Shown one piece after another: positions 8,596 through 54,654 of a stretch of 64,000 nucleotides of DNA. Every line of letters begins with the position of its first letter. The stretch's first letter is position 1. The position numbers and the translations under genes were made by a program. Under the pieces are notes generated by a model that was given only the letters and a program-made list of their open reading frames with translations, did no database searches and was not told where the DNA came from. Source of the stretch: Deltaproteobacteria bacterium (GTDB taxonomy: Bacteria > Desulfobacterota > Binatia > Binatales > Binataceae); the NCBI GenBank assembly GCA_003135855.1, contig PNBD01000044.1:10905-74904 (forward strand). The letters run 5' to 3'.

Positions 8596-9756
8596 TCAGA
8601 CCACTTTACGAAACGCCAGCGCGGGCGGAATCCTGATCGCAGCGACAATCGGGATAAGGCCGCTGACGACGCTGACCAGCAGTGCTGCCACGACTGCGCT
8701 CAGCGCCTCGCGCGGCGTCACCCACAATCCGCCATTGCCGCTGAGAACTGCACCAAGCGTGACGCCCCCATGGAACATCCAGAGCGCGGGCAGAGCGCCG
8801 AGCAAGCCTCCAACGAGACCCAGTACCGCGCATTCGCCAAACAAAAGGCCGGCGACGCGACTCCGCGAAAAGCCGAGAGCACGCATGATCGCGACCTCAC
8901 TGATGCGATCGCGCACCATCATCGCGGTCGAATTCGCGGCGATCAGCAGCACCGTGAGGATCACCACCGCGCACAGCGCAAAAATAATTCCACGGATGTT
9001 ACCCATCGCCGACAGACCCGACGCCAGCGCGTCGCTTTCGGTCGAGGTGCGCGTTTCGTAATCGGAATTCGCGAAGCGCTCGTCGATCTGTTTGGCGAGC
9101 GGCGCCAACGTTTCCGCGCTGTCGGCACGCACGATGATATTCCAGGCAATGTCCTCGTCGTTGCCGCCGTGCGCTTTGCGCGCTTCCATGAGATAGTCGC
9201 GGCGAATCAAAAACGTGTTGGGATAGCGCTTGGACTTCATGATCCCCATGATCACGAAAGTCATCTCCATATGCTCGGCGTCGGTGCCGCGGAGCGTGAC
9301 CTGCTGTCCAATCTTCCAACCGTATTTGTGCATCAGGATTTCGCCGACGATGGCCGAACGCCGCTCCTTGGCGGTCGCGACGCGCTGTTCTTCCGTCATC
9401 TGGTAGTCGGGGAACACCGTCGAAATTTCGGGGCCGGCGGCGGCGCAGAAAACCGGTTCACTCGGACTCCGCCAATTCGCGAACCATCCCGTGATCCCGA
9501 CGCACGCCGCCGCGCCGGGCATTTTGCGGATGTCGTCGCAGTAGCGCGCAGGCAAATCCTGCCACGGCGCAGTCTTGTTATTGATGATCAGTCTCAGCGT
9601 GCCTGACGCGTCGCTCACGACCTTGTCCATCGACGCCGGAACGCAAATCAGGATCGTGTAGATGAAGGTGGCGAGCGCGATCGTGAGCGCGGTCAGAATC
9701 GTGCGCCGAAGGTTGCGGCGCATGTTGCGTTCGATCAATTTGAAAAGCTTCAGCAT
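8596..9756 (-). CDS. ABC transporter permease, FtsX-like (type A paralog, second copy)
   Basis: MLKLFKLIERNMRRNLRRTILTALTIALATFIYTILICVPASMD..., with the same architecture as 6159-7322. Confidence 0.8.
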   Translation of the reverse strand: MLKLFKLIERNMRRNLRRTILTALTIALATFIYTILICVPASMDKVVSDASGTLRLIINNKTAPWQDLPARYCDDIRKMPGAAACVGITGWFANWRSPSEPVFCAAAGPEISTVFPDYQMTEEQRVATAKERRSAIVGEILMHKYGWKIGQQVTLRGTDAEHMEMTFVIMGIMKSKRYPNTFLIRRDYLMEARKAHGGNDEDIAWNIIVRADSAETLAPLAKQIDERFANSDYETRTSTESDALASGLSAMGNIRGIIFALCAVVILTVLLIAANSTAMMVRDRISEVAIMRALGFSRSRVAGLLFGECAVLGLVGGLLGALPALWMFHGGVTLGAVLSGNGGLWVTPREALSAVVAALLVSVVSGLIPIVAAIRIPPALAFRKVV

Positions 9757-47579: not shown

Positions 47580-48701
47580 ATGAGCTCAAGCAAGTTGCGC
47601 AGATTCTTGATCGCGTTCGCGCGATGGTTCGATACTTCGGCCGGCGGCACACCGGAGTCCGACGGTCTACAGAAAACAGATTGGCTGCGATGCATCCCGT
47701 TCGCGCTCGTGCACCTGATGTGCCTCGGCGTGATTTGGGTCGGATGGAGTCCGATTGCGGTTGCGGTCGCAGTCGCGCTGTATTTCGTGCGGATGTTCGC
47801 GATCACCGGATTCTATCACCGCTATTTTTCGCATCGGACGTTCAAGACTTCGCGCTTCGCACAATTTCTGTTCGCCGTGATGGGCGCGACCTCGGCGCAA
47901 CGCGGCGCGCTCTGGTGGGCGTCGCATCATCGGTTGCACCATCAACGATCCGATGAGGAATCCGACGTTCATTCGCCGCGCCAGCACGGCTTCATCTGGA
48001 GTCACATTGGATGGATCACGTCGGAGTCGAACTTCCGCTCCGAGCTGCAGGTGGTGCGCGATCTCGCGAAATATCCGGAGCTGATGTTCCTCGATCGCTT
48101 CGACATCCTGGTGCCGACGGTGCTCGGGTTCTCGCTCTTCGGGTTGGGTGCGATGCTCGAGCGGTATGCGCCTGGTCTCCATACCAGCGGCGCGCAGATG
48201 CTGATCTGGGGCTTCTTCATTTCAACCGTCGTGCTGGCACACGGCACCTTCACGATCAATTCGCTTGCGCACGTGATTGGCCGCCGGCGCTTCGAGACCG
48301 GCGACGACAGCCGCAACAGTTTCGCGCTCGCGATGGTGACGCTCGGCGAAGGCTGGCACAACAATCACCATCATTTTCCCGCGGCGGCGCGCAACGGATT
48401 TTTTTGGTGGGAGATCGACATCACTTATTACGTTTTGAAGATGCTGGCCGCGTTGGGAATCATCTGGGAGCTCAGGCCGGTGCCCGAGCAACTGCTATAT
48501 GAAGATCGCGTAGTGCCTGTGCCGCGGAAGATTCCGATTGGCCGTACAGCCGCTGCGGGCCATGCGGTCGCACCGGCGAATCGCGAGCCGAACGCCGAAT
48601 GGCGAAGCGCTGCGGCCTCGACGCTGCAAGACGCGGCGGCGAAAGTAGCGCCGCTCGCGCGACTCGGCAGCGCGGCGACGGAGCCAGAAGCGGCCGGCTG
48701 A
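47580..48701 (+). CDS. Acyl-CoA (delta-9-type) fatty-acid desaturase
   Basis: Three His boxes: HRYFSHR, HHRLHH, HNNHHHFP. Four TMs. Confidence 0.85.
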   Translation: MSSSKLRRFLIAFARWFDTSAGGTPESDGLQKTDWLRCIPFALVHLMCLGVIWVGWSPIAVAVAVALYFVRMFAITGFYHRYFSHRTFKTSRFAQFLFAVMGATSAQRGALWWASHHRLHHQRSDEESDVHSPRQHGFIWSHIGWITSESNFRSELQVVRDLAKYPELMFLDRFDILVPTVLGFSLFGLGAMLERYAPGLHTSGAQMLIWGFFISTVVLAHGTFTINSLAHVIGRRRFETGDDSRNSFALAMVTLGEGWHNNHHHFPAAARNGFFWWEIDITYYVLKMLAALGIIWELRPVPEQLLYEDRVVPVPRKIPIGRTAAAGHAVAPANREPNAEWRSAAASTLQDAAAKVAPLARLGSAATEPEAAG

Positions 48702-48702
48702 G

Positions 48703-49992
48703 ATGGCGAAGTCCGGTTCAATCGTCGCGTCGGGCGTCGACGCGGCGCGCACTCGACGTCCCGCAGTAATCGACCGTTTCGCGCGCGGCGCAGTGCTCGC
48801 GCGCCTGCAAGGCCTCAAGCGCGACCGACTCGTAGTCGAAGATCGCGAACTCCCTGAAACGCGCGTCTTCGGCCAGGATTCATCCTCGGCCGAACTGCGC
48901 GCGACGATCCGCGTTCACGACCGCCGCTTCTACTCCGACCTCGCGCTCGGCGGGAGCATCGGCGCCGGCGAAGCGTACATGGCGGGCTCGTGGACCACTG
49001 ACGATCTCACGTCGCTAGTGCAGATCATGATTCGCAATCGCGAGGTGATGGAGGCGATGGACTCCGGGCTTGCGCGCCTGGCGAATCCGGTGCGGAAACT
49101 GCTGCACTACCTGAATCGCAACACCAAAGACGGCAGCGCGCGCAACATCGCCGCGCATTACGATCTCGGCAACGATTTCTTCGAGCTGATCCTGGATCGC
49201 ACGCTGATGTACTCGTGCGCGATTTTCGAACGCCCCGATGCGACCCTGGAAGAAGCCGCGCTCGCCAAGGTGGAACGAATTTGTCGCAAGCTCGAATTGC
49301 GGCCGAGCGATCACCTGGTTGAGATCGGCACCGGCTGGGGCGGGTTCGCGATCCATGCGGCGAAGAACTACGGATGCCGCGTCACGACCGCGACGATCTC
49401 GCGCGCGCAGCATGATTACGCCATCAAGCGCATCGCGGCGGAGGGCCTGCAGGATCGCATCACGGTGCTGCTCAAGGACTATCGCGATCTGGAGGGACAG
49501 TTCGACAAGGCGGTGTCGATCGAGATGATCGAAGCAGTCGGACATCATTTCGTCGATTCGTATTTCCGCAAATGCGGCGAGCTGTTGAAGCCGGATGGGG
49601 TGATGCTGCTGCAAGCGATCACGATCGCGGACCAGTACTACGAGAACGCGCTGCGCACCGTCGATTTCATCAAGAAGTACATCTTCCCGGGCAGTTTTAT
49701 CCCGTCGGTGACGGCGATTTGCGATTCAATCACGCGCGCGAGCGATCTGCGGCTGTTCCATCTTGAGGATCTGACGCCGAACTACGCGGAGACGCTCAAG
49801 CACTGGCGGCTCAGGCTATTCCAGCATCTCGATCGCGTGCGCGCGCTCGGCTATCCGGAGGAATTCATCCGGATGTGGGAATTTTACCTTTGCTACTGCG
49901 AGGGCGGCTTCCGCGAGCGTTATATCGGCGACGTGCAGATGATACTGACCAAGCCCGCCTCGCGCCGCGCCCCGCTCCTGCCCAGCTTGTAG
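48703..49992 (+). CDS. cfa: Cyclopropane-fatty-acyl-phospholipid synthase
   Basis: SAM-methyltransferase motif VEIGTGWGGFA and Cfa C-terminal conservation. Confidence 0.9.
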   Translation: MAKSGSIVASGVDAARTRRPAVIDRFARGAVLARLQGLKRDRLVVEDRELPETRVFGQDSSSAELRATIRVHDRRFYSDLALGGSIGAGEAYMAGSWTTDDLTSLVQIMIRNREVMEAMDSGLARLANPVRKLLHYLNRNTKDGSARNIAAHYDLGNDFFELILDRTLMYSCAIFERPDATLEEAALAKVERICRKLELRPSDHLVEIGTGWGGFAIHAAKNYGCRVTTATISRAQHDYAIKRIAAEGLQDRITVLLKDYRDLEGQFDKAVSIEMIEAVGHHFVDSYFRKCGELLKPDGVMLLQAITIADQYYENALRTVDFIKKYIFPGSFIPSVTAICDSITRASDLRLFHLEDLTPNYAETLKHWRLRLFQHLDRVRALGYPEEFIRMWEFYLCYCEGGFRERYIGDVQMILTKPASRRAPLLPSL

Positions 49993-50132
49993 TTGCCGGC
50001 CTTCTCTTCTGTCCGTCGGTTTTTCGGAGACGACTCTTCTAAATCAAGCGTGCCCGATGGCGAGCTTTCGCGAGCCGCGAGCGCAGCGAGCCCCGAGCCG
50101 CAACGGAGTGGAGGCAAGGGAATCAAGATGAG

Positions 50133-50169
50133 TTGACAACAGCGATAACCAGATGATAATTATTACCAT
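50133..50169 (+). promoter_or_regulatory. Sigma70-like promoter (TTGACA-17-ATAATT) with an overlapping Fur/PerR-type box ATGATAAT-T-ATTACCAT
   Basis: TTGACA at 50133-50138. An 8-1-8 inverted repeat at 50153-50169 with one mismatch, resembling 7-1-7 Fur-family operators. It overlaps the -10 and is immediately upstream of the regulator gene. Confidence 0.45.
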
Positions 50170-50175
50170 CTAGGA

Positions 50176-50703
50176 ATGGAACTACAGCTGGTAAATGAGC
50201 GACGACGCCCGGCCTACGCCGCGCAGCGCCTGGCCGAATTCGCCGAGCGCTGCCGCGCGGGCGGCCTGGCCGTGACGCCGCAGCGCATAGCGATTATCAA
50301 GGTGCTGCTTGATTCGGCGGAGCATCCGCGCGCCGACGCGATTTGCGCCGCGGTGCGCAAGCAGCATCCCCATGTCTCGCTCGCCACCGTTCATCGCACG
50401 CTCGAGACGCTGTGCGAGATCGGCGAGGCGCGCAAGGTCACGATGCTGCATGACAGCGCGCGCTACGACGGCAATCTTACGCCGCATCATCACGTGGTGT
50501 GCATCAAGTGCCGCTGCATCAGGGACATCGAAATTCCCCAGCTCGATCGGATCCTTGCGGGCCGCTCGGAACTGGGCGAATTCACGGTGCTCGGATCGTC
50601 GCTGGAGATTCACGCGCTGTGCGAACGATGCGGGGCGAAAGCCGCGAAGCGCGCAACCGGCGGAGTCGGTCGCAGCCAGCGCAAGCAAAAATCATCGAAG
50701 TAA
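50176..50703 (+). CDS. Fur-family transcriptional regulator (PerR-like by context)
   Basis: GLAVTPQRIAIIKVLL...HVSLATVHRTLETL DNA-binding helix. C-terminal CxxC...CxxC zinc site. Confidence 0.8.
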   Translation: MELQLVNERRRPAYAAQRLAEFAERCRAGGLAVTPQRIAIIKVLLDSAEHPRADAICAAVRKQHPHVSLATVHRTLETLCEIGEARKVTMLHDSARYDGNLTPHHHVVCIKCRCIRDIEIPQLDRILAGRSELGEFTVLGSSLEIHALCERCGAKAAKRATGGVGRSQRKQKSSK

Positions 50704-50725
50704 TTCAGCCAACAGGGAGAAGAAC

Positions 50726-51142
50726 ATGCCAAGTCTGAAAGGAACCAAGACCCATACAAATCTCAAAAACGCTTTTGCCGGCGAGAGCCAGGCCAACCGC
50801 CGCTATCTCTATTTCGCGAAAATCGCGGACATCGAGGGCCAGCCGGAAATCGCCGGACTGTTCCGCGACACCGCCGAAGGGGAGACCGGTCACGCGCACG
50901 GCCATCTCGATTATCTGAAACAGGTCGGCGACCCGGCGACCGATTTGCCGATGGGCGATTCGGCGCTGAATCTCAAGTCGGCGGTGCACGGCGAGACCCA
51001 CGAATACACCGACATGTATCCCGGCATGGCGCGCACCGCGCGCGAGGAAGGCTTCGACGAGATCGCCGACTGGTTCGAGACGCTCGCCAAGGCCGAAAAG
51101 TCCCACGCTGGACGTTTCGCCAAGGCGGCCACAACGCTCTAG
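50726..51142 (+). CDS. rbr: Rubrerythrin-family diiron protein (no rubredoxin domain)
   Basis: ATG 50726 with an AGGGAGA RBS. Ferritin-like E-x-x-H pairs ([17 protein letters not shown]). The track ORF 50309-51142 is an out-of-context extension through perR. Confidence 0.75.
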
Positions 51143-51316
51143 TTTTCCGCGGACAATCGAGTCCGTCCCGGGCATCGCAGGGTGACCCGGGACGGTGTCT
51201 CATCAAAAGGTCATCGATTTTCTCGTCGGGTTGTCGTGTTCAAGTTTCTTCAACGACTTATCCGAATCGGTGCCCGAGAATCCGTATCGTCGCGAAACTC
51301 CTGACCAGGTTGACTA

Positions 51317-52669
51317 ATGAGTGACCGCATCGAAGCCAAGCCCAGCGACGGGCTTTCCTACAACATGACCGAGCCCAAATATTGGGACCGCGCCGGGCTC
51401 AATAGAGAAATCGAGCGCGTTTTCGACATCTGTCACGGATGCCGGCTGTGCTTCAATTTGTGTCCGTCGTTCCCGGCGTTGTTCGAGGCGGCCGATCGCA
51501 ACGACGGCGATGTCCGCAAGCTGACCGCGGACGAGACCCATCGCGTAATCGAGCTTTGTTACGGATGTAAGCTGTGCGAGATCAAATGTCCCTACACGCC
51601 GCGTGACGGCCACGAGTTCCAGCTTGATTTTCCGCGCTTGATGATTCGCGCCAAGTCGGTCGGCGCCAAGGAAAACGGGATCGGGCTGCGCGAAAAAATC
51701 CTCGGCAATCCCGACTTACTCGGCAAGCTCGGCAACCTGACTCCGCGCCTCGCCAATTGGGGATGCCATCGGAAGTTTCAGCGCGTGATGATGGAAAAGG
51801 TGCTCGGGATTCATCGCGACAAGAAGCTGCCCGATTTCGCCGGAGAGACTTTCGACAAGTGGATAGCGCGAACGGGTCTGCCGCCTGAACCCGCCGAGCC
51901 GGCCGCCAAAGTTGCGCTTTTTCCGACCTGCTTCGTGAACTACTACAATCCCGGACCGGGCAAGGCGGCGGTCGAAATCTTCGCGAAAAACGGATGCGCG
52001 ATCAAATACCCGAAGCAGAACTGTTGCGGGATGCCGGCGCTCGACGGCGGCGATGCCGACTTCGCGCGGAAGGAAGCGCGCGCCAATGTCGACGCGATGC
52101 TGCCGCTGGTGCGCGATGGCTACAAAATCGCGGCGATCAACCCGACCTGCTCGCTCACGATGCGCAAAGAGTATCTGAATTTGCTGCCCGGCGATGAGGT
52201 GAAGGAGTTCGCCGCGGCCGTGGTCGATCCAAGCGAGCTGCTTTACCGGCTCCGGCGCGAGGGCAAGTTCAACAGCGATTTTCGATCGACCCCGGTGAGC
52301 GTTGCCTACCACGTTCCATGTCACTTGAAGGCGCAAGGAATTGGCTTTCGCTCGCGCGATCTGATGCGTCAGATTCCGGGCGTGCAGATCGCGACTGTCG
52401 AGGCATGTACGGCGCATGACGGTTCATGGGCGATGAAAAAAGAATTCTTCGAGCTATCGATGAAATGGGGCGAGAAGGCATTTTCGGCGATGCGCGACGC
52501 CGACGCGCGCGTGATGGCGAGCGATTGCCCACTGGCGGCGGTGCAAATCGAGCAGGCCACTGGTGTCCGGCCGATGAATCCGCTCGAGGTGCTGGCTCGC
52601 GCGTATGAAATAGATGGTTTCGCTGACGCCGTGTCGCCACCGGAGCCGAACAAGGACGATGAGGCATGA
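51317..52669 (+). CDS. (Fe-S)-binding protein, GlpC/HdrD-like with two 4Fe-4S ferredoxin motifs and two CCG domains
   Basis: CHGCRLCFNLCP and CYGCKLCEIKCP, then Cys-rich CCG-type repeats (CFVNYY.., CCGMP.., CHLK..). Confidence 0.75.
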   Translation: MSDRIEAKPSDGLSYNMTEPKYWDRAGLNREIERVFDICHGCRLCFNLCPSFPALFEAADRNDGDVRKLTADETHRVIELCYGCKLCEIKCPYTPRDGHEFQLDFPRLMIRAKSVGAKENGIGLREKILGNPDLLGKLGNLTPRLANWGCHRKFQRVMMEKVLGIHRDKKLPDFAGETFDKWIARTGLPPEPAEPAAKVALFPTCFVNYYNPGPGKAAVEIFAKNGCAIKYPKQNCCGMPALDGGDADFARKEARANVDAMLPLVRDGYKIAAINPTCSLTMRKEYLNLLPGDEVKEFAAAVVDPSELLYRLRREGKFNSDFRSTPVSVAYHVPCHLKAQGIGFRSRDLMRQIPGVQIATVEACTAHDGSWAMKKEFFELSMKWGEKAFSAMRDADARVMASDCPLAAVQIEQATGVRPMNPLEVLARAYEIDGFADAVSPPEPNKDDEA

Positions 52670-53253
52670 AACCGATAACCTTCGACCAGACACTCGCGCT
52701 GGCGGATTACGAACGCGTCCGTGAGCTTTTGCGACCGCTGTTGATTCACGCCAAAGAACGACGCCGATTGGCGGTCGGTTCCCATCTGACGTTTCTATTC
52801 GAGAACAACCAGACGGTCTGGTACCAGATTCAGGAAATGATCCGCACGGAAAAGATGACGACGCGCGAAGCGATTCAGCATGAAATCGATACCTACAACG
52901 AAATCCTGCCGGGCAGCGACGAACTGGTCGCCACGATGCTGATCGAGTATGGCGAGCCGCGCGAACGCGACGCCGCGCTCAGGCGCCTGGTCGGGCTGGA
53001 ACGTCATCTGTGGCTTAAGGTCGCGGGGAAAAAAATCGCGGCGAAGTTCGACGATCGCCAGATGTCAGACGAGCGGGTCAGCGCCGTTCAGTTCGTGCGC
53101 TTTCCGCTCGAGGGTCTCGGGGCCGCCGGGATGATCGAACTCGCGGGCAGGGGCGAAATCGCGATCGAAGTCGATCATCCGGCGATGGCGGCGAGCAGCG
53201 CGTTCAGCCCGTCGCTGGGCGGGGCGCTGGCGGAGGATTTGCGCCAGTCGTAA
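52666..53253 (+). CDS. Conserved hypothetical protein, probably DUF3501 family
   Basis: 195 aa. Overlaps the Fe-S gene stop by 4 nt (ATGA), suggesting translational coupling. Family assignment is from memory of a recurrent Fe-S/DUF3501 pairing. Confidence 0.45.
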   Translation: MKPITFDQTLALADYERVRELLRPLLIHAKERRRLAVGSHLTFLFENNQTVWYQIQEMIRTEKMTTREAIQHEIDTYNEILPGSDELVATMLIEYGEPRERDAALRRLVGLERHLWLKVAGKKIAAKFDDRQMSDERVSAVQFVRFPLEGLGAAGMIELAGRGEIAIEVDHPAMAASSAFSPSLGGALAEDLRQS

Positions 53254-53293
53254 CTCGATTGCCCGGGCCTCAGACGCGGTTCGCAGAAACACA

Positions 53294-53338
53294 AACGCCG
53301 AACCCGGTTGCCCGGATTCGGCGTTCGTTTTTTCTTTT
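53294..53338 (+). terminator. Strong Rho-independent terminator (13-bp stem with a 1-nt internal loop, then CGTTTTTTCTTTT)
   Basis: AACGCCGAACCCGG-TTGC-CCGGATTCGGCGTT, then a U-tract. It lies between convergent genes and may act in both directions. Confidence 0.7.
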
Positions 53339-53349
53339 ATGCGGCCTGA

Positions 53350-54654
53350 TTAATCAACAGGAGGGGGGTGCGGAACCGCAAGGCCGGTCGGCAGATGGAG
53401 GCCCGTGGCGCCGCCCTGAACCCTCACGTTAAAACGCGGTGAACCGCCCGCTTCCAACTGGCCGAAATCATTGTCGTACATCAGGAAGCTGTTCCGGCCG
53501 TTGATCGCAACGTACACCTCGTCTCCGTTAGAATCGATGCCCATCGGGGAGTGCAACCACCTTCCGCTAATAGTCGCAACCAACGTACCGAAGAAAGTAT
53601 CGGTATCGAAAACCTGGATCGTGTTGGTGCCAGCGTCGGTGACGAAAATCTCACCGTCGCTCTCGCCATCTACCGCAACGAATTCCCCGCCCGTCGCGGA
53701 CAAAACCCCGCTGCCGATGATGTTATCGGGAAACGCGTCTCCGCTTGCATCGTCGGCATAAGAAGTAACGTACCCGAAGAGGCTATTGACTACCCACAGC
53801 TTACCGGTCGAGTCGGAAGCAAGGCCGGTCGGTCCGCCCAGGAACGACAAGCATCCGCCGATGGTCGCATTCTCGAGCACACCGGGCGGAATCGGCGGTA
53901 TGGCGAGGACGACTGGCGAGTTGTTGAGTGGGATTACGTCGCCGCTATCACCCTCAAAGAATTCAGTGATGGTTCCCAAGCTGAAGCCAGCGCCGCCCTC
54001 CGACACTGGCGCGCAAATTCCGATACCCGAATCGGGCGCGATGACGACGCCGAGTGTGTTCGCGACTGCGAAAATTCCGTCTTCATCGTCGCCCTGAAGG
54101 AAGACCGTGCCGGTGGGATTATTGTTACCAGTGTCGGGCCCAATGATTACGGCCGAAGGCGCCGAATTACCGGTCGAGCCGGCACCGAACTGCAGAATGT
54201 CATTGGCGAGTTGGTTCCCCACCGCGATGTCCTGTAGATCCGGGCTGATCGCAACTCCCGAGACACCGTCGAAGCCCGGGGCATGACCAATGATCTGGTG
54301 GAGCGGCTTGTTATTGCCGGCGGAGCCCGGAGCAAACGTCGAAACGCTGCCGCCGAAGAGGGCTCCGTTGTTGCCCACCACCACGAGGTCTTCCGTGCAT
54401 TTATCGTCTAAACTGCAATTCTTCGCGTAGCTGCTGGTGGTCGTCATCGCCAGCAATACCGCAGCCGAGAATATCGCCACCACAACTGAGAAGGGGCGAG
54501 CGAACTCGGCAAATCTTAGCGCGGCTCTGTGCGCCAATGAGCTTCCGTCCCTAACCTGCGTCACCGTCTGCATTCTTCCTTGCGTCATTGTGTCTAACCC
54601 CCGCCGAGTCAATCGGTGTCCCACCTGCTGGCCTAAGTCAGTCTCGAAAACCAA
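53350..54654 (-). CDS. Secreted Gly/Asp/Thr-rich repeat protein (possible beta-propeller), unknown function
   Basis: Hydrophobic signal-like segment PFSVVVAIFSAAVLLAMTTTSS, then repetitive G/D/S/T-rich beta segments. The true start is probably an internal Met, so the N-terminus is uncertain. Confidence 0.5.
   Translation of the reverse strand: MVFETDLGQQVGHRLTRRGLDTMTQGRMQTVTQVRDGSSLAHRAALRFAEFARPFSVVVAIFSAAVLLAMTTTSSYAKNCSLDDKCTEDLVVVGNNGALFGGSVSTFAPGSAGNNKPLHQIIGHAPGFDGVSGVAISPDLQDIAVGNQLANDILQFGAGSTGNSAPSAVIIGPDTGNNNPTGTVFLQGDDEDGIFAVANTLGVVIAPDSGIGICAPVSEGGAGFSLGTITEFFEGDSGDVIPLNNSPVVLAIPPIPPGVLENATIGGCLSFLGGPTGLASDSTGKLWVVNSLFGYVTSYADDASGDAFPDNIIGSGVLSATGGEFVAVDGESDGEIFVTDAGTNTIQVFDTDTFFGTLVATISGRWLHSPMGIDSNGDEVYVAINGRNSFLMYDNDFGQLEAGGSPRFNVRVQGGATGLHLPTGLAVPHPPPVD

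Follow-up and report, generated by a model that had tools for sequence, protein, structure and literature searches.

The DNA analysed here (hereafter the window) comprises 64,000 nucleotides of contig PNBD01000044.1 (GenBank assembly GCA_003135855.1), from a Deltaproteobacteria bacterium of the Binataceae (Binatia). Between 50133 and 53340 it encodes, on one strand, a Fur-family regulator resembling PerR, an aerobic-type rubrerythrin (rbr), an Fe-S oxidoreductase (RFO) and a DUF3501 protein, preceded by a promoter that is overlapped by an inverted repeat and followed by a terminator-like hairpin (Table 1). We regard it as likely that this region constitutes one peroxide-defence unit, in which a PerR-type repressor acting on a 7-1-7 operator is joined to the rbr-RFO-DUF3501 genes. 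The trio itself and the local PerR layout are already known, and the question of the electron donor and of DUF3501 is recognised in the literature. New here are the Binatia host, the joining of a PerR-type regulator to the trio (in about a quarter of the sampled loci), and a natural covariation across phyla between a DNA-reading residue of the regulator and the type of its box.

Table 1. Features of the perR-rbr-RFO-DUF3501 locus, in window coordinates
Feature	Position	Strand	Remarks
Sigma-70-type promoter	50133..50161	+	11/12 consensus positions matched
Spacer element GATAAC/AATAAT, candidate extra half-site	50144..50149	+	11 bp upstream of box GATAAT
Operator, 8-1-8 inverted repeat ATGATAAT-T-ATTACCAT	50153..50169	.	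Arms differ by 1 mismatch
perR-like gene, Fur-family repressor, 175 aa	50176..50703	+	PF01475, E=4e-23
rbr, aerobic-type rubrerythrin, 138 aa	50726..51142	+	PF02915 only
GC-rich stem-loop	51163..51195	+	Perfect 10-bp stem, 13-nt loop, no T tract
RFO, GlpC-like Fe-S oxidoreductase, 450 aa	51317..52669	+	Fer4 dicluster + PF02754 (CCG)
DUF3501 protein, 195 aa	52666..53253	+	PF12007, E=3.6e-56, model positions 2-187 of 187
Terminator-like hairpin + T run, operon end	53287..53340	.	21-nt arms, 86% complementary

A single Fur-type box overlaps the promoter of the regulator gene

A promoter scan of 49900-53500 returned a sole promoter-like site, TTGACA (50133-50138) with a 16-nt spacer to GATAAT (50155-50160); read with a 17-nt spacer, the same site has ATAATT as its -10 element. 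The 8-1-8 inverted repeat lies over this -10 element, exactly where the first-pass annotation of the window, made from the sequence alone, had placed it. Its core, TGATAAT-T-ATTACCA (50154-50168), is a Fur-type 7-1-7 box overlapping both the -10 element and the predicted transcription start. The 17-bp repeat ATGATAAT-T-ATTACCAT is present in a single copy in the window, with 0.01 matches expected by chance; it is also the only AT-rich 8-1-8 repeat there with at most one mismatch, and it was re-found de novo as the top AT-rich palindrome with no consensus used. Compared with the Fur 7-1-7 consensus TGATAATNATTATCA, the operator has one mismatch in the window and none in the relative L009. The B. 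subtilis PerR box, in contrast, is TTATAATNATTATAA (TTATAAT-type); by sequence, the window operator is a Fur-type box and not a PerR box. The name PerR-box, used in the first-pass annotation, therefore suits the protein, which has the Asp117 of a PerR-type binder, and not the sequence class of the site, which is one mismatch from the Fur 7-1-7 box and faces an Arg at position 74 of the regulator.

We compared the contigs of seven relatives at 67-80% identity. The -35 element, spacer, box and -10 element are kept through to the ATG in six of them (L001, L003, L005, L006, L008 and L009; proteins ~67-80% identical), the N-terminal codons MELQLVNERRR of the regulator are also conserved among the Binatia relatives, and the DNA upstream of the -35 element could not be aligned among them. 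Each of the seven related loci contains one box only (at most two mismatches to TGATAATNATTATCA), always before the regulator gene. That an operator is conserved across the -10 element in front of the regulator gene argues for autoregulation, as had been proposed. The spacer element at 50144-50149 may be an extra half-site; it is kept in close relatives (GCGATAAY / GCAATAAY) and not in the more distant L010.

Because the -10 element ends at 50160, we infer a transcription start near 50167-50169 and a leader of ~7-9 nt without a conserved Shine-Dalgarno sequence, in agreement with the very short leader predicted earlier. The regulator ATG (50176) is located 6 nt past the end of the repeat. AGGA at 50172-50175 was rejected as a Shine-Dalgarno sequence: it abuts the ATG and is not conserved, the relatives having TAGATT, TAGACT, TAGTA, TAGGTT or TAGGTG in its place. 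A 5' mRNA hairpin around the start codon (50163-50194) was likewise rejected (z = -0.6, not conserved in L001). Use of TACCAT (50164-50169) as the -10 element, which would give a truly leaderless mRNA, is a minor alternative; its geometry fits, but it lacks a -35 element or TG extension.

The first-pass annotation had proposed a scan for further copies of the box as a way to define the regulon. Across the window and the related loci, such a scan yielded a single box each and no further targets: searches of the 64 kb for the exact box, or for the Fur consensus with up to three mismatches, gave no other convincing site, and an AT-rich repeat search detected no weaker box between rbr and RFO or, in relatives, between katG and rbr. 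With one box in the window and one in each related locus, no regulon could be outlined. Two overlapping three-mismatch matches to the Fur 7-1-7 consensus at 9576-9596 are at chance level.

The regulator combines a PerR-type sensor site with a Fur-type reading residue

The best PDB match of the regulator is B. subtilis PerR (2FE3; E=5.6e-22, ~35% identity), ahead of every Fur. In a gap-free alignment to 2FE3, H50, D98, H104, H106 and D117 correspond to H37, D85, H91, H93 and D104 of the PerR regulatory metal site, and C109, C112, C149 and C152, arranged in two CxxC motifs, correspond to its structural Zn(Cys)4 site. The position of PerR N61, in the DNA-reading helix H4, is occupied by R74 in place of the PerR Asn. 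The metal ligands, the Cys4 site and R74 are all kept in six relatives. C. jejuni PerR (6DK4) has a Lys at the N61 position in the same alignment.

According to Parent et al. 2013 and Caux-Thang et al. 2015, as cited in PMC8638967, an Asp at the D104 position is a mark of PerR and Irr and a Glu one of Fur, Zur, Mur and Nur, and an Asn in helix H4 is found in readers of PerR boxes and an Arg in readers of Fur boxes. Asp117 therefore points to a PerR-type sensor. Arg74 at the N61 position, in turn, points to a reading head, and hence an operator (TGATAAT..., not TTATAAT...), of the Fur type. The regulator thus appears to join the sensor residue of PerR to the DNA-reading residue of Fur, as does the engineered N61R variant of B. 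subtilis PerR cited in PMC8638967, with the difference that the Arg and the TGATAAT-type operator are natural here. The missing Asn61 and PerR box lower the case for a canonical Bacillus-type PerR, and not the case for a working peroxide sensor.

Like B. subtilis PerR, the protein has all five regulatory ligands, the Cys4 Zn site and the Asp for H2O2 sensitivity; unlike it, besides the modest identity and the Arg for Asn61, it bears an N-terminal extension and a basic tail. The extension is a conserved stretch of 13 residues, MELQLVNERRRPAY (50176-50214), and the C-terminal tail (50640-50703) is variable and rich in Lys and Arg. The best NCBIfam models are those of PerR, all under their cut-offs (NF052545, 103.8 bits vs 180; NF047406, 92.6 vs 200); both models are lineage-specific. 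As to Fur, D98 and D117 stand in place of Glu, and the target genes are those of peroxidases, not of iron acquisition. The genomic link to peroxide detoxification is direct: the regulator gene immediately precedes rbr in the window, and katG-rbr in L003, L005, L006, L007 and L052.

Relatives carry katG between the regulator gene and rbr

The gene order shared with the relatives is a CMAS methyltransferase, the Fur-family gene, rbr, the Fe-S gene, DUF3501 and a convergent NHL gene. In four Binatia relatives (L003, 867-3044; L005, 1277-3496; L006, 1804-3984; L007, 2131-3888), the regulator gene and rbr are separated by a catalase-peroxidase gene (katG, PF00141), which supports peroxide control. 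The same arrangement recurs in L052, one of the multi-phylum loci described below, and katG is not at this junction in the window, L001, L008 or L009. The katG, Fur-family and RFO genes of L006 and L007 are broken up into several open reading frames, probably by long-read frameshift errors.

Two known layouts are similar. In mycobacteria (furA-katG; Sala et al. 2008, PMC2358910), katG directly follows the gene of an autoregulated peroxide regulator of the Fur family and is expressed from the promoter of that gene; L003, L005, L006 and L007 have the same gene layout, whereas in the window rubrerythrin takes the place of katG. In the perR-rbr-rdl locus of Desulfovibrio vulgaris and the perR-rbr-roo locus of Geobacter (Rodionov et al. 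2004, PMC545781), perR is directly upstream of rubrerythrin and its promoter has a palindrome at or across the -10 element, forming a local autoregulated regulon. Those loci encode classical anaerobic rubrerythrins with the rubredoxin partners Rdl and Roo, whereas the partners here are RFO and DUF3501; the PerR operators of Desulfovibrio and Geobacter also have other sequences (e.g. AtCAGTAATtGTTACTGgT), unlike the Fur-type operator of the window.

Residue 74 covaries with box type across phyla

Species-representative genomes were scanned with a DUF3501 alignment, which gave 80 loci from Acidobacteriota, Myxococcota, Burkholderiales, SAR324, Rokubacteria and other groups. A Fur-family gene adjoins rbr in 18 of the 80 (15 on the same strand, 3 divergent), one of which, L052, also has katG. 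Asp117 is common to all 18 of these neighbours and Asp98 to 17 of them; at position 74, Arg, Lys and Asn all occur.

Upstream regions were searched de novo, without a consensus, for AT-rich 7-1-7 palindromes, with looser matches tallied separately; the comparison of residue and box takes in 25 loci overall. Where a clear palindrome was found, Arg74 went with the box TGxTAxT-N-AxTAxCA (7/7 loci) and Lys74 with (C/T)GATAAT-N-ATTATCG (3/3 loci); in general form, the boxes of both groups read (T/C)GATAAT-N-ATTATC(A/G). Regulators with Asn74 had boxes resembling TTAGAAT-N-ATTCTAA, in three loci by the clear and five by the looser criterion. This natural covariation mirrors the engineered N61R switch, and it supports the view that the palindromes are the regulators' own operators. 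It provides a natural example of the engineered result, namely that the reading-head residue sets the choice between Fur-type and PerR-type boxes, and is of help for predicting the operators of uncharacterised Fur-family regulators. In one deltaproteobacterial locus (L030, 2974-4521), two rubrerythrin copies flank a divergent Fur-family gene upstream of RFO-DUF3501.

The downstream genes belong to a published rubrerythrin trio

The rbr gene starts 22 nt past the stop codon of the regulator gene and has its own Shine-Dalgarno sequence (AGGGAG, 6 nt before the ATG), as the first-pass annotation had reported; what it had overlooked is that this 138-aa protein, with PF02915 as its sole domain, has no rubredoxin domain. 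Its match to the Rbr model, which has 194 positions, spans positions 1-142. Against B. pseudomallei Rbr (BpRbr; 9ONM/4DI0) it gave E=3e-66 and ~72% identity, against sulerythrin (1J30) E=1.6e-53, and against the classical D. vulgaris Rbr E=2.6e-26. Two ExxH motifs and the ligands E20, E53, H56, E90, E93, E124 and H127 are legible in its sequence. The protein is a diiron four-helix-bundle peroxidase of the sulerythrin/BpRbr type and not a classical Rbr.

RFO contains two CxxCxxCxxxCP ferredoxin-type [4Fe-4S] motifs (Cys 39/42/45/49 and 81/84/87/91), one clear CCG domain (Cys 205/236/237/278) and a second, degenerate one (Cys 335/364/404). The latter lacks the CCG tripeptide, keeps three invariant Cys, and shows up only in a scan restricted to its own fragment (21 bits vs a cut-off of 20.6). 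Fifteen Cys of RFO are kept in 65-66 of 66 sequences from many phyla. The earlier description of a GlpC/HdrD-like protein with two ferredoxin motifs and two CCG domains is thus borne out for the motifs and the first CCG domain, with the second reduced to a degenerate form. The same overall architecture, with two N-terminal ferredoxin-type motifs and two C-terminal CCG domains, is seen in GlpC, HdrD and HdrB; unlike them, RFO has no GlpAB or Hdr partners nearby, and its partners throughout the family are rbr and DUF3501. The maximum Kyte-Doolittle average over 19 residues was 1.08, and no hydrophobic segment was found in the protein.

The RFO stop codon and the DUF3501 start codon overlap as ATGA (52666-52669), confirming the reported 4-nt overlap with a 195-aa open reading frame, and the placement of that frame in DUF3501, tentative at first pass, is unambiguous (Table 1). 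The protein matches PDB 3FJV (E=1.9e-28), a solved but uncharacterised structure, and its AF2 model (pLDDT 81.8) matches 3FJV alone in the PDB; judged from the model, the fold is an orphan. Over 44 diverse members R34, T50, Q54, E57, E62 and T90 are invariant, and the invariant or near-invariant residues include carboxylates, amides and a His (E46, N47, Q54, E57, E62, E73, H171, D191). The family comprises 2078 clusters at 50% identity. The nearest named relatives of the window protein are from Candidatus Binatus and Binataceae, and an identical copy exists in public data. Many members, among them five of ~300 aa (P0155, P0170, P0181, P0204, P0245), carry an additional C-terminal domain of ~100 aa without a Pfam match. 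Single fusions of DUF3501 were seen with an AhpC/TSA peroxiredoxin (P0235), a ferritin-like domain (P0139) and a truncated rubrerythrin (P0225). As Rosetta-stone evidence we give these fusions little weight; P0225 is short of the final helix of Rbr and could be the product of a frameshift error.

Cardenas, Quatrini and Holmes (2016) described an 'aerobic-type' RBR together with DUF3501 and a COG0247 Fe-S oxidoreductase that they named RFO (PMC5114695). The three occurred together in 185 complete genomes, RBR and DUF3501 without RFO in 25, and DUF3501 and RFO as a fusion in Nitrosomonas (PMC5114695); the trio is also present in protist mitochondria (PMC7050145). The window shows the three features of this system, a rubredoxin-less rbr, a co-localised PF12007 gene and a COG0247-type RFO. 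The first-pass annotation had suggested mapping the Fe-S/DUF3501 pair across genomes; in our 80 loci, from many phyla, the order rbr-RFO-DUF3501 is kept in ~66, and ~6 have rbr-DUF3501 only. The published two-gene variant, with DUF3501 directly after rbr and no RFO between them, is represented by L016, L037, L043, L072 and L083 (Myxococcota, Deltaproteobacteria, Burkholderiales). The pair is therefore conserved, as had been stated, and is part of this trio (PMC5114695; PMC7050145), not an orphan module that merely lies beside a peroxide gene. By gene content, the pair of the window is an obligate companion of the rubredoxin-less rubrerythrin. The window trio has the same proteins in the usual order, ~72% identity to BpRbr, the same Fe-S/CCG architecture and the PF12007/3FJV protein. 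It differs in its Binatia host, outside the 2016 survey (PMC5114695), and in standing behind an autoregulated PerR-type gene, or behind perR-katG in some relatives. PMC5114695 makes no mention of PerR, OxyR or regulation, and the cited trio papers leave regulation undiscussed.

Hairpins and extent of the transcription unit

The hairpin without a U tract noted at 51163-51195 at first pass is present as described, with its perfect 10-bp stem; it lies 21 nt past the rbr stop codon and has a predicted energy of -31 kcal/mol (z = -4.7). Non-homologous GC hairpins occupy the same place in L001, L006, L008 (there with a T tract) and L009, and L003 has none. This pattern suggests an attenuator or a 3'-end stabiliser rather than a conserved RNA motif, and Rfam gave no known RNA element in the rbr-RFO spacer. 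The hairpin is probably a partial terminator or 3'-end stabiliser setting the ratio of rbr to RFO and DUF3501. Passed over at first was a second, terminator-like hairpin after DUF3501 (53287-53340; -27.7 kcal/mol, z = -4.1), followed by the T run UUUUUUCUUUU and common to the DUF3501 gene and the convergent NHL-repeat gene. A weak Rfam ctRNA match at this hairpin is under threshold and was taken as chance.

A model for peroxide-controlled expression and its alternatives

Gene identities, the conserved operator, the residues of the sensor and of the reading head, the shared gene order and the katG link are observed; for repression and the sensing of H2O2, transcription as one unit, electron flow and the part played by DUF3501 we infer the following course from the sequences. 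A PerR-type dimer, with a structural Zn(Cys)4 site and a regulatory His3Asp2 site for Fe or Mn, would bind the single 7-1-7 operator. Because the operator covers the -10 element and the transcription start, RNA polymerase would be blocked by the repressor. Oxidation of the Fe-loaded sensor site by H2O2, as it occurs in B. subtilis PerR, would release the repressor from the DNA and allow transcription of the operon. From the short-leader mRNA, PerR and abundant rubrerythrin would be made, and RFO and DUF3501, encoded beyond the GC hairpin, in smaller amounts; by lowering read-through or stabilising the rbr 3' end, the hairpin would keep rubrerythrin in excess. The diiron site of rubrerythrin would be where H2O2 is reduced. 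RFO, with its two [4Fe-4S] clusters and its CCG centre, and the cofactor-less DUF3501 protein would deliver electrons in place of the rubredoxin domain, with DUF3501 as a docking or adaptor subunit and a quinol or a thiol as candidates for the ultimate reductant. A role of RFO and DUF3501 in peroxide-linked electron transfer is probable.

Whether the promoter serves all four genes turns on the spacer after rbr. If the hairpin at 51163-51195 were a full terminator, perR-rbr and RFO-DUF3501 would be separate units, the second of them outside control by the box. The great stability of the hairpin, the 174-nt length of the rbr-RFO spacer and the analogous hairpins of relatives, one with a T tract (L008), would fit such an arrangement. 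We judge it unlikely: the window hairpin has no U tract, neither the promoter scan of 49900-53500 nor the box search found a second promoter-like site or box in the spacer, and the spacer shrinks to 47 nt without a hairpin in L003 and to merely 24-66 nt in several distant loci. Another alternative concerns the third gene: a genuine GlpC, the membrane-associated subunit of anaerobic glycerol-3-phosphate dehydrogenase, would be functionally unrelated to rubrerythrin. GlpC is the nearest characterised family and the outgroup to RFO (PMC5114695), and the NCBIfam model PRK11168 is passed marginally (280.3 bits vs 278), but TIGR03379 fails (188.5 vs 279.9) and the published phylogeny separates the two (PMC5114695). 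No glpA or glpB lies near RFO in the window neighbourhood, in eight syntenic loci or in ~66 distant ones; its flanks in the window are genes for CMAS, a fatty-acid desaturase and an NHL-repeat protein. In ~66 of the 80 loci, from many phyla, the gene stands between rbr and DUF3501, and here it overlaps DUF3501 by ATGA. Because glpAB are not nearby and this place is fixed, the GlpC label is unsupported, and we consider it extremely unlikely to be right.

The nature of the signal and of the DUF3501 protein can be weighed in the same way. Were the regulator a genuine iron-sensing Fur, the iron-rich Rbr/RFO operon would follow iron supply and not peroxide. The near-consensus Fur operator (exact in L009), the Arg of the reading head and the PerR models that all stay under cut-off are in keeping with a Fur. 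Both carboxylates are nevertheless Asp (D98, D117), the PerR/Irr signature, and not Glu; the best PDB and NCBIfam matches are PerR; the regulator gene directly precedes katG in five related loci; and Asp117 is shared by 18/18 Fur-family neighbours of rbr in other phyla. An iron-sensing Fur is thus very unlikely. For DUF3501, with or without RFO, an alternative to an electron-transfer partner is a role as metallochaperone or repair factor, in which the bimetallic site of aerobic-type rubrerythrins, promiscuous for metals, would be loaded or re-reduced. Consistent with this, the protein has conserved carboxylates, amides and a His despite lacking Cys or a known cofactor motif, it goes with rbr even where RFO is absent, it is fused in single cases to a ferritin-like domain or AhpC/TSA, and BpRbr and sulerythrin bind several metals promiscuously (PMC12154734). 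Against it, the orphan fold permits no inference of metal binding by analogy, and the tight coupling, sometimes fusion, to an Fe-S oxidoreductase is easier to understand as a redox complex. We hold the chaperone or repair role to be decidedly unlikely.

Several points nonetheless weigh against a single peroxide-responsive unit. Repression and responsiveness to H2O2 are predicted from homology, and the regulator scores far under every NCBIfam PerR cut-off (103.8 vs 180 bits). A true Fur encoded elsewhere could bind the Fur-type box, which would make the operon iron-responsive. The strong hairpin after rbr, like its T-tract counterpart in L008, might genuinely end transcription; in that case a separate promoter would be required for RFO and DUF3501, and none was detected. 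As to electron flow, the DUF3501 protein has no Cys and no recognisable cofactor site, and a 2025 preprint on BpRbr still treats the replacement of the rubredoxin domain by operon partners, with electron transfer from RFO and DUF3501 to rubrerythrin, as a hypothesis (PMC12154734). Because rbr and DUF3501 occur without RFO in some genomes, RFO would not be the sole electron route.

On the reading that we prefer, a peroxide-defence unit under a PerR-type repressor, the operon might even be a complete, self-contained H2O2 reductase, in which RFO takes electrons from the quinol pool or from low-molecular-weight thiols at its CCG cluster and DUF3501 is the obligatory adaptor that docks RFO on the domain-swapped rubrerythrin dimer. 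We offer this extension tentatively, as possible and somewhat doubtful. If it is true, it would identify the physiological reductant that has long been missing for the aerobic-type rubrerythrins of bacteria, of archaea and of the mitochondria of protists. The hybrid Asp/Arg regulator would, if confirmed, show that peroxide and iron sensors can have an operator type in common, leaving room for Fur-PerR cross-talk at the promoter. The locus and its relatives add a regulatory argument for placing the trio in the H2O2 response, through the PerR-type repressor and, in some genomes, the presence of katG in the same unit. The trio is widespread. The current picture is unchanged by the locus, which is a clean test case and not a new system.

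Neighbouring genes

Directly upstream of the operon (47580-49992) are genes for a fatty-acid desaturase (PF00487) and a cyclopropane-fatty-acid-synthase-like methyltransferase (PF02353). Synteny of the methyltransferase gene with the perR operon extends to every Binatia relative examined but L001 and L002, which have CTP synthase and cytidylyltransferase-family genes there. On the other side, the convergent gene on the minus strand (53350-54654) encodes an NHL-repeat protein of 434 aa, the length of which ranges from 375 to 565 aa among the relatives.

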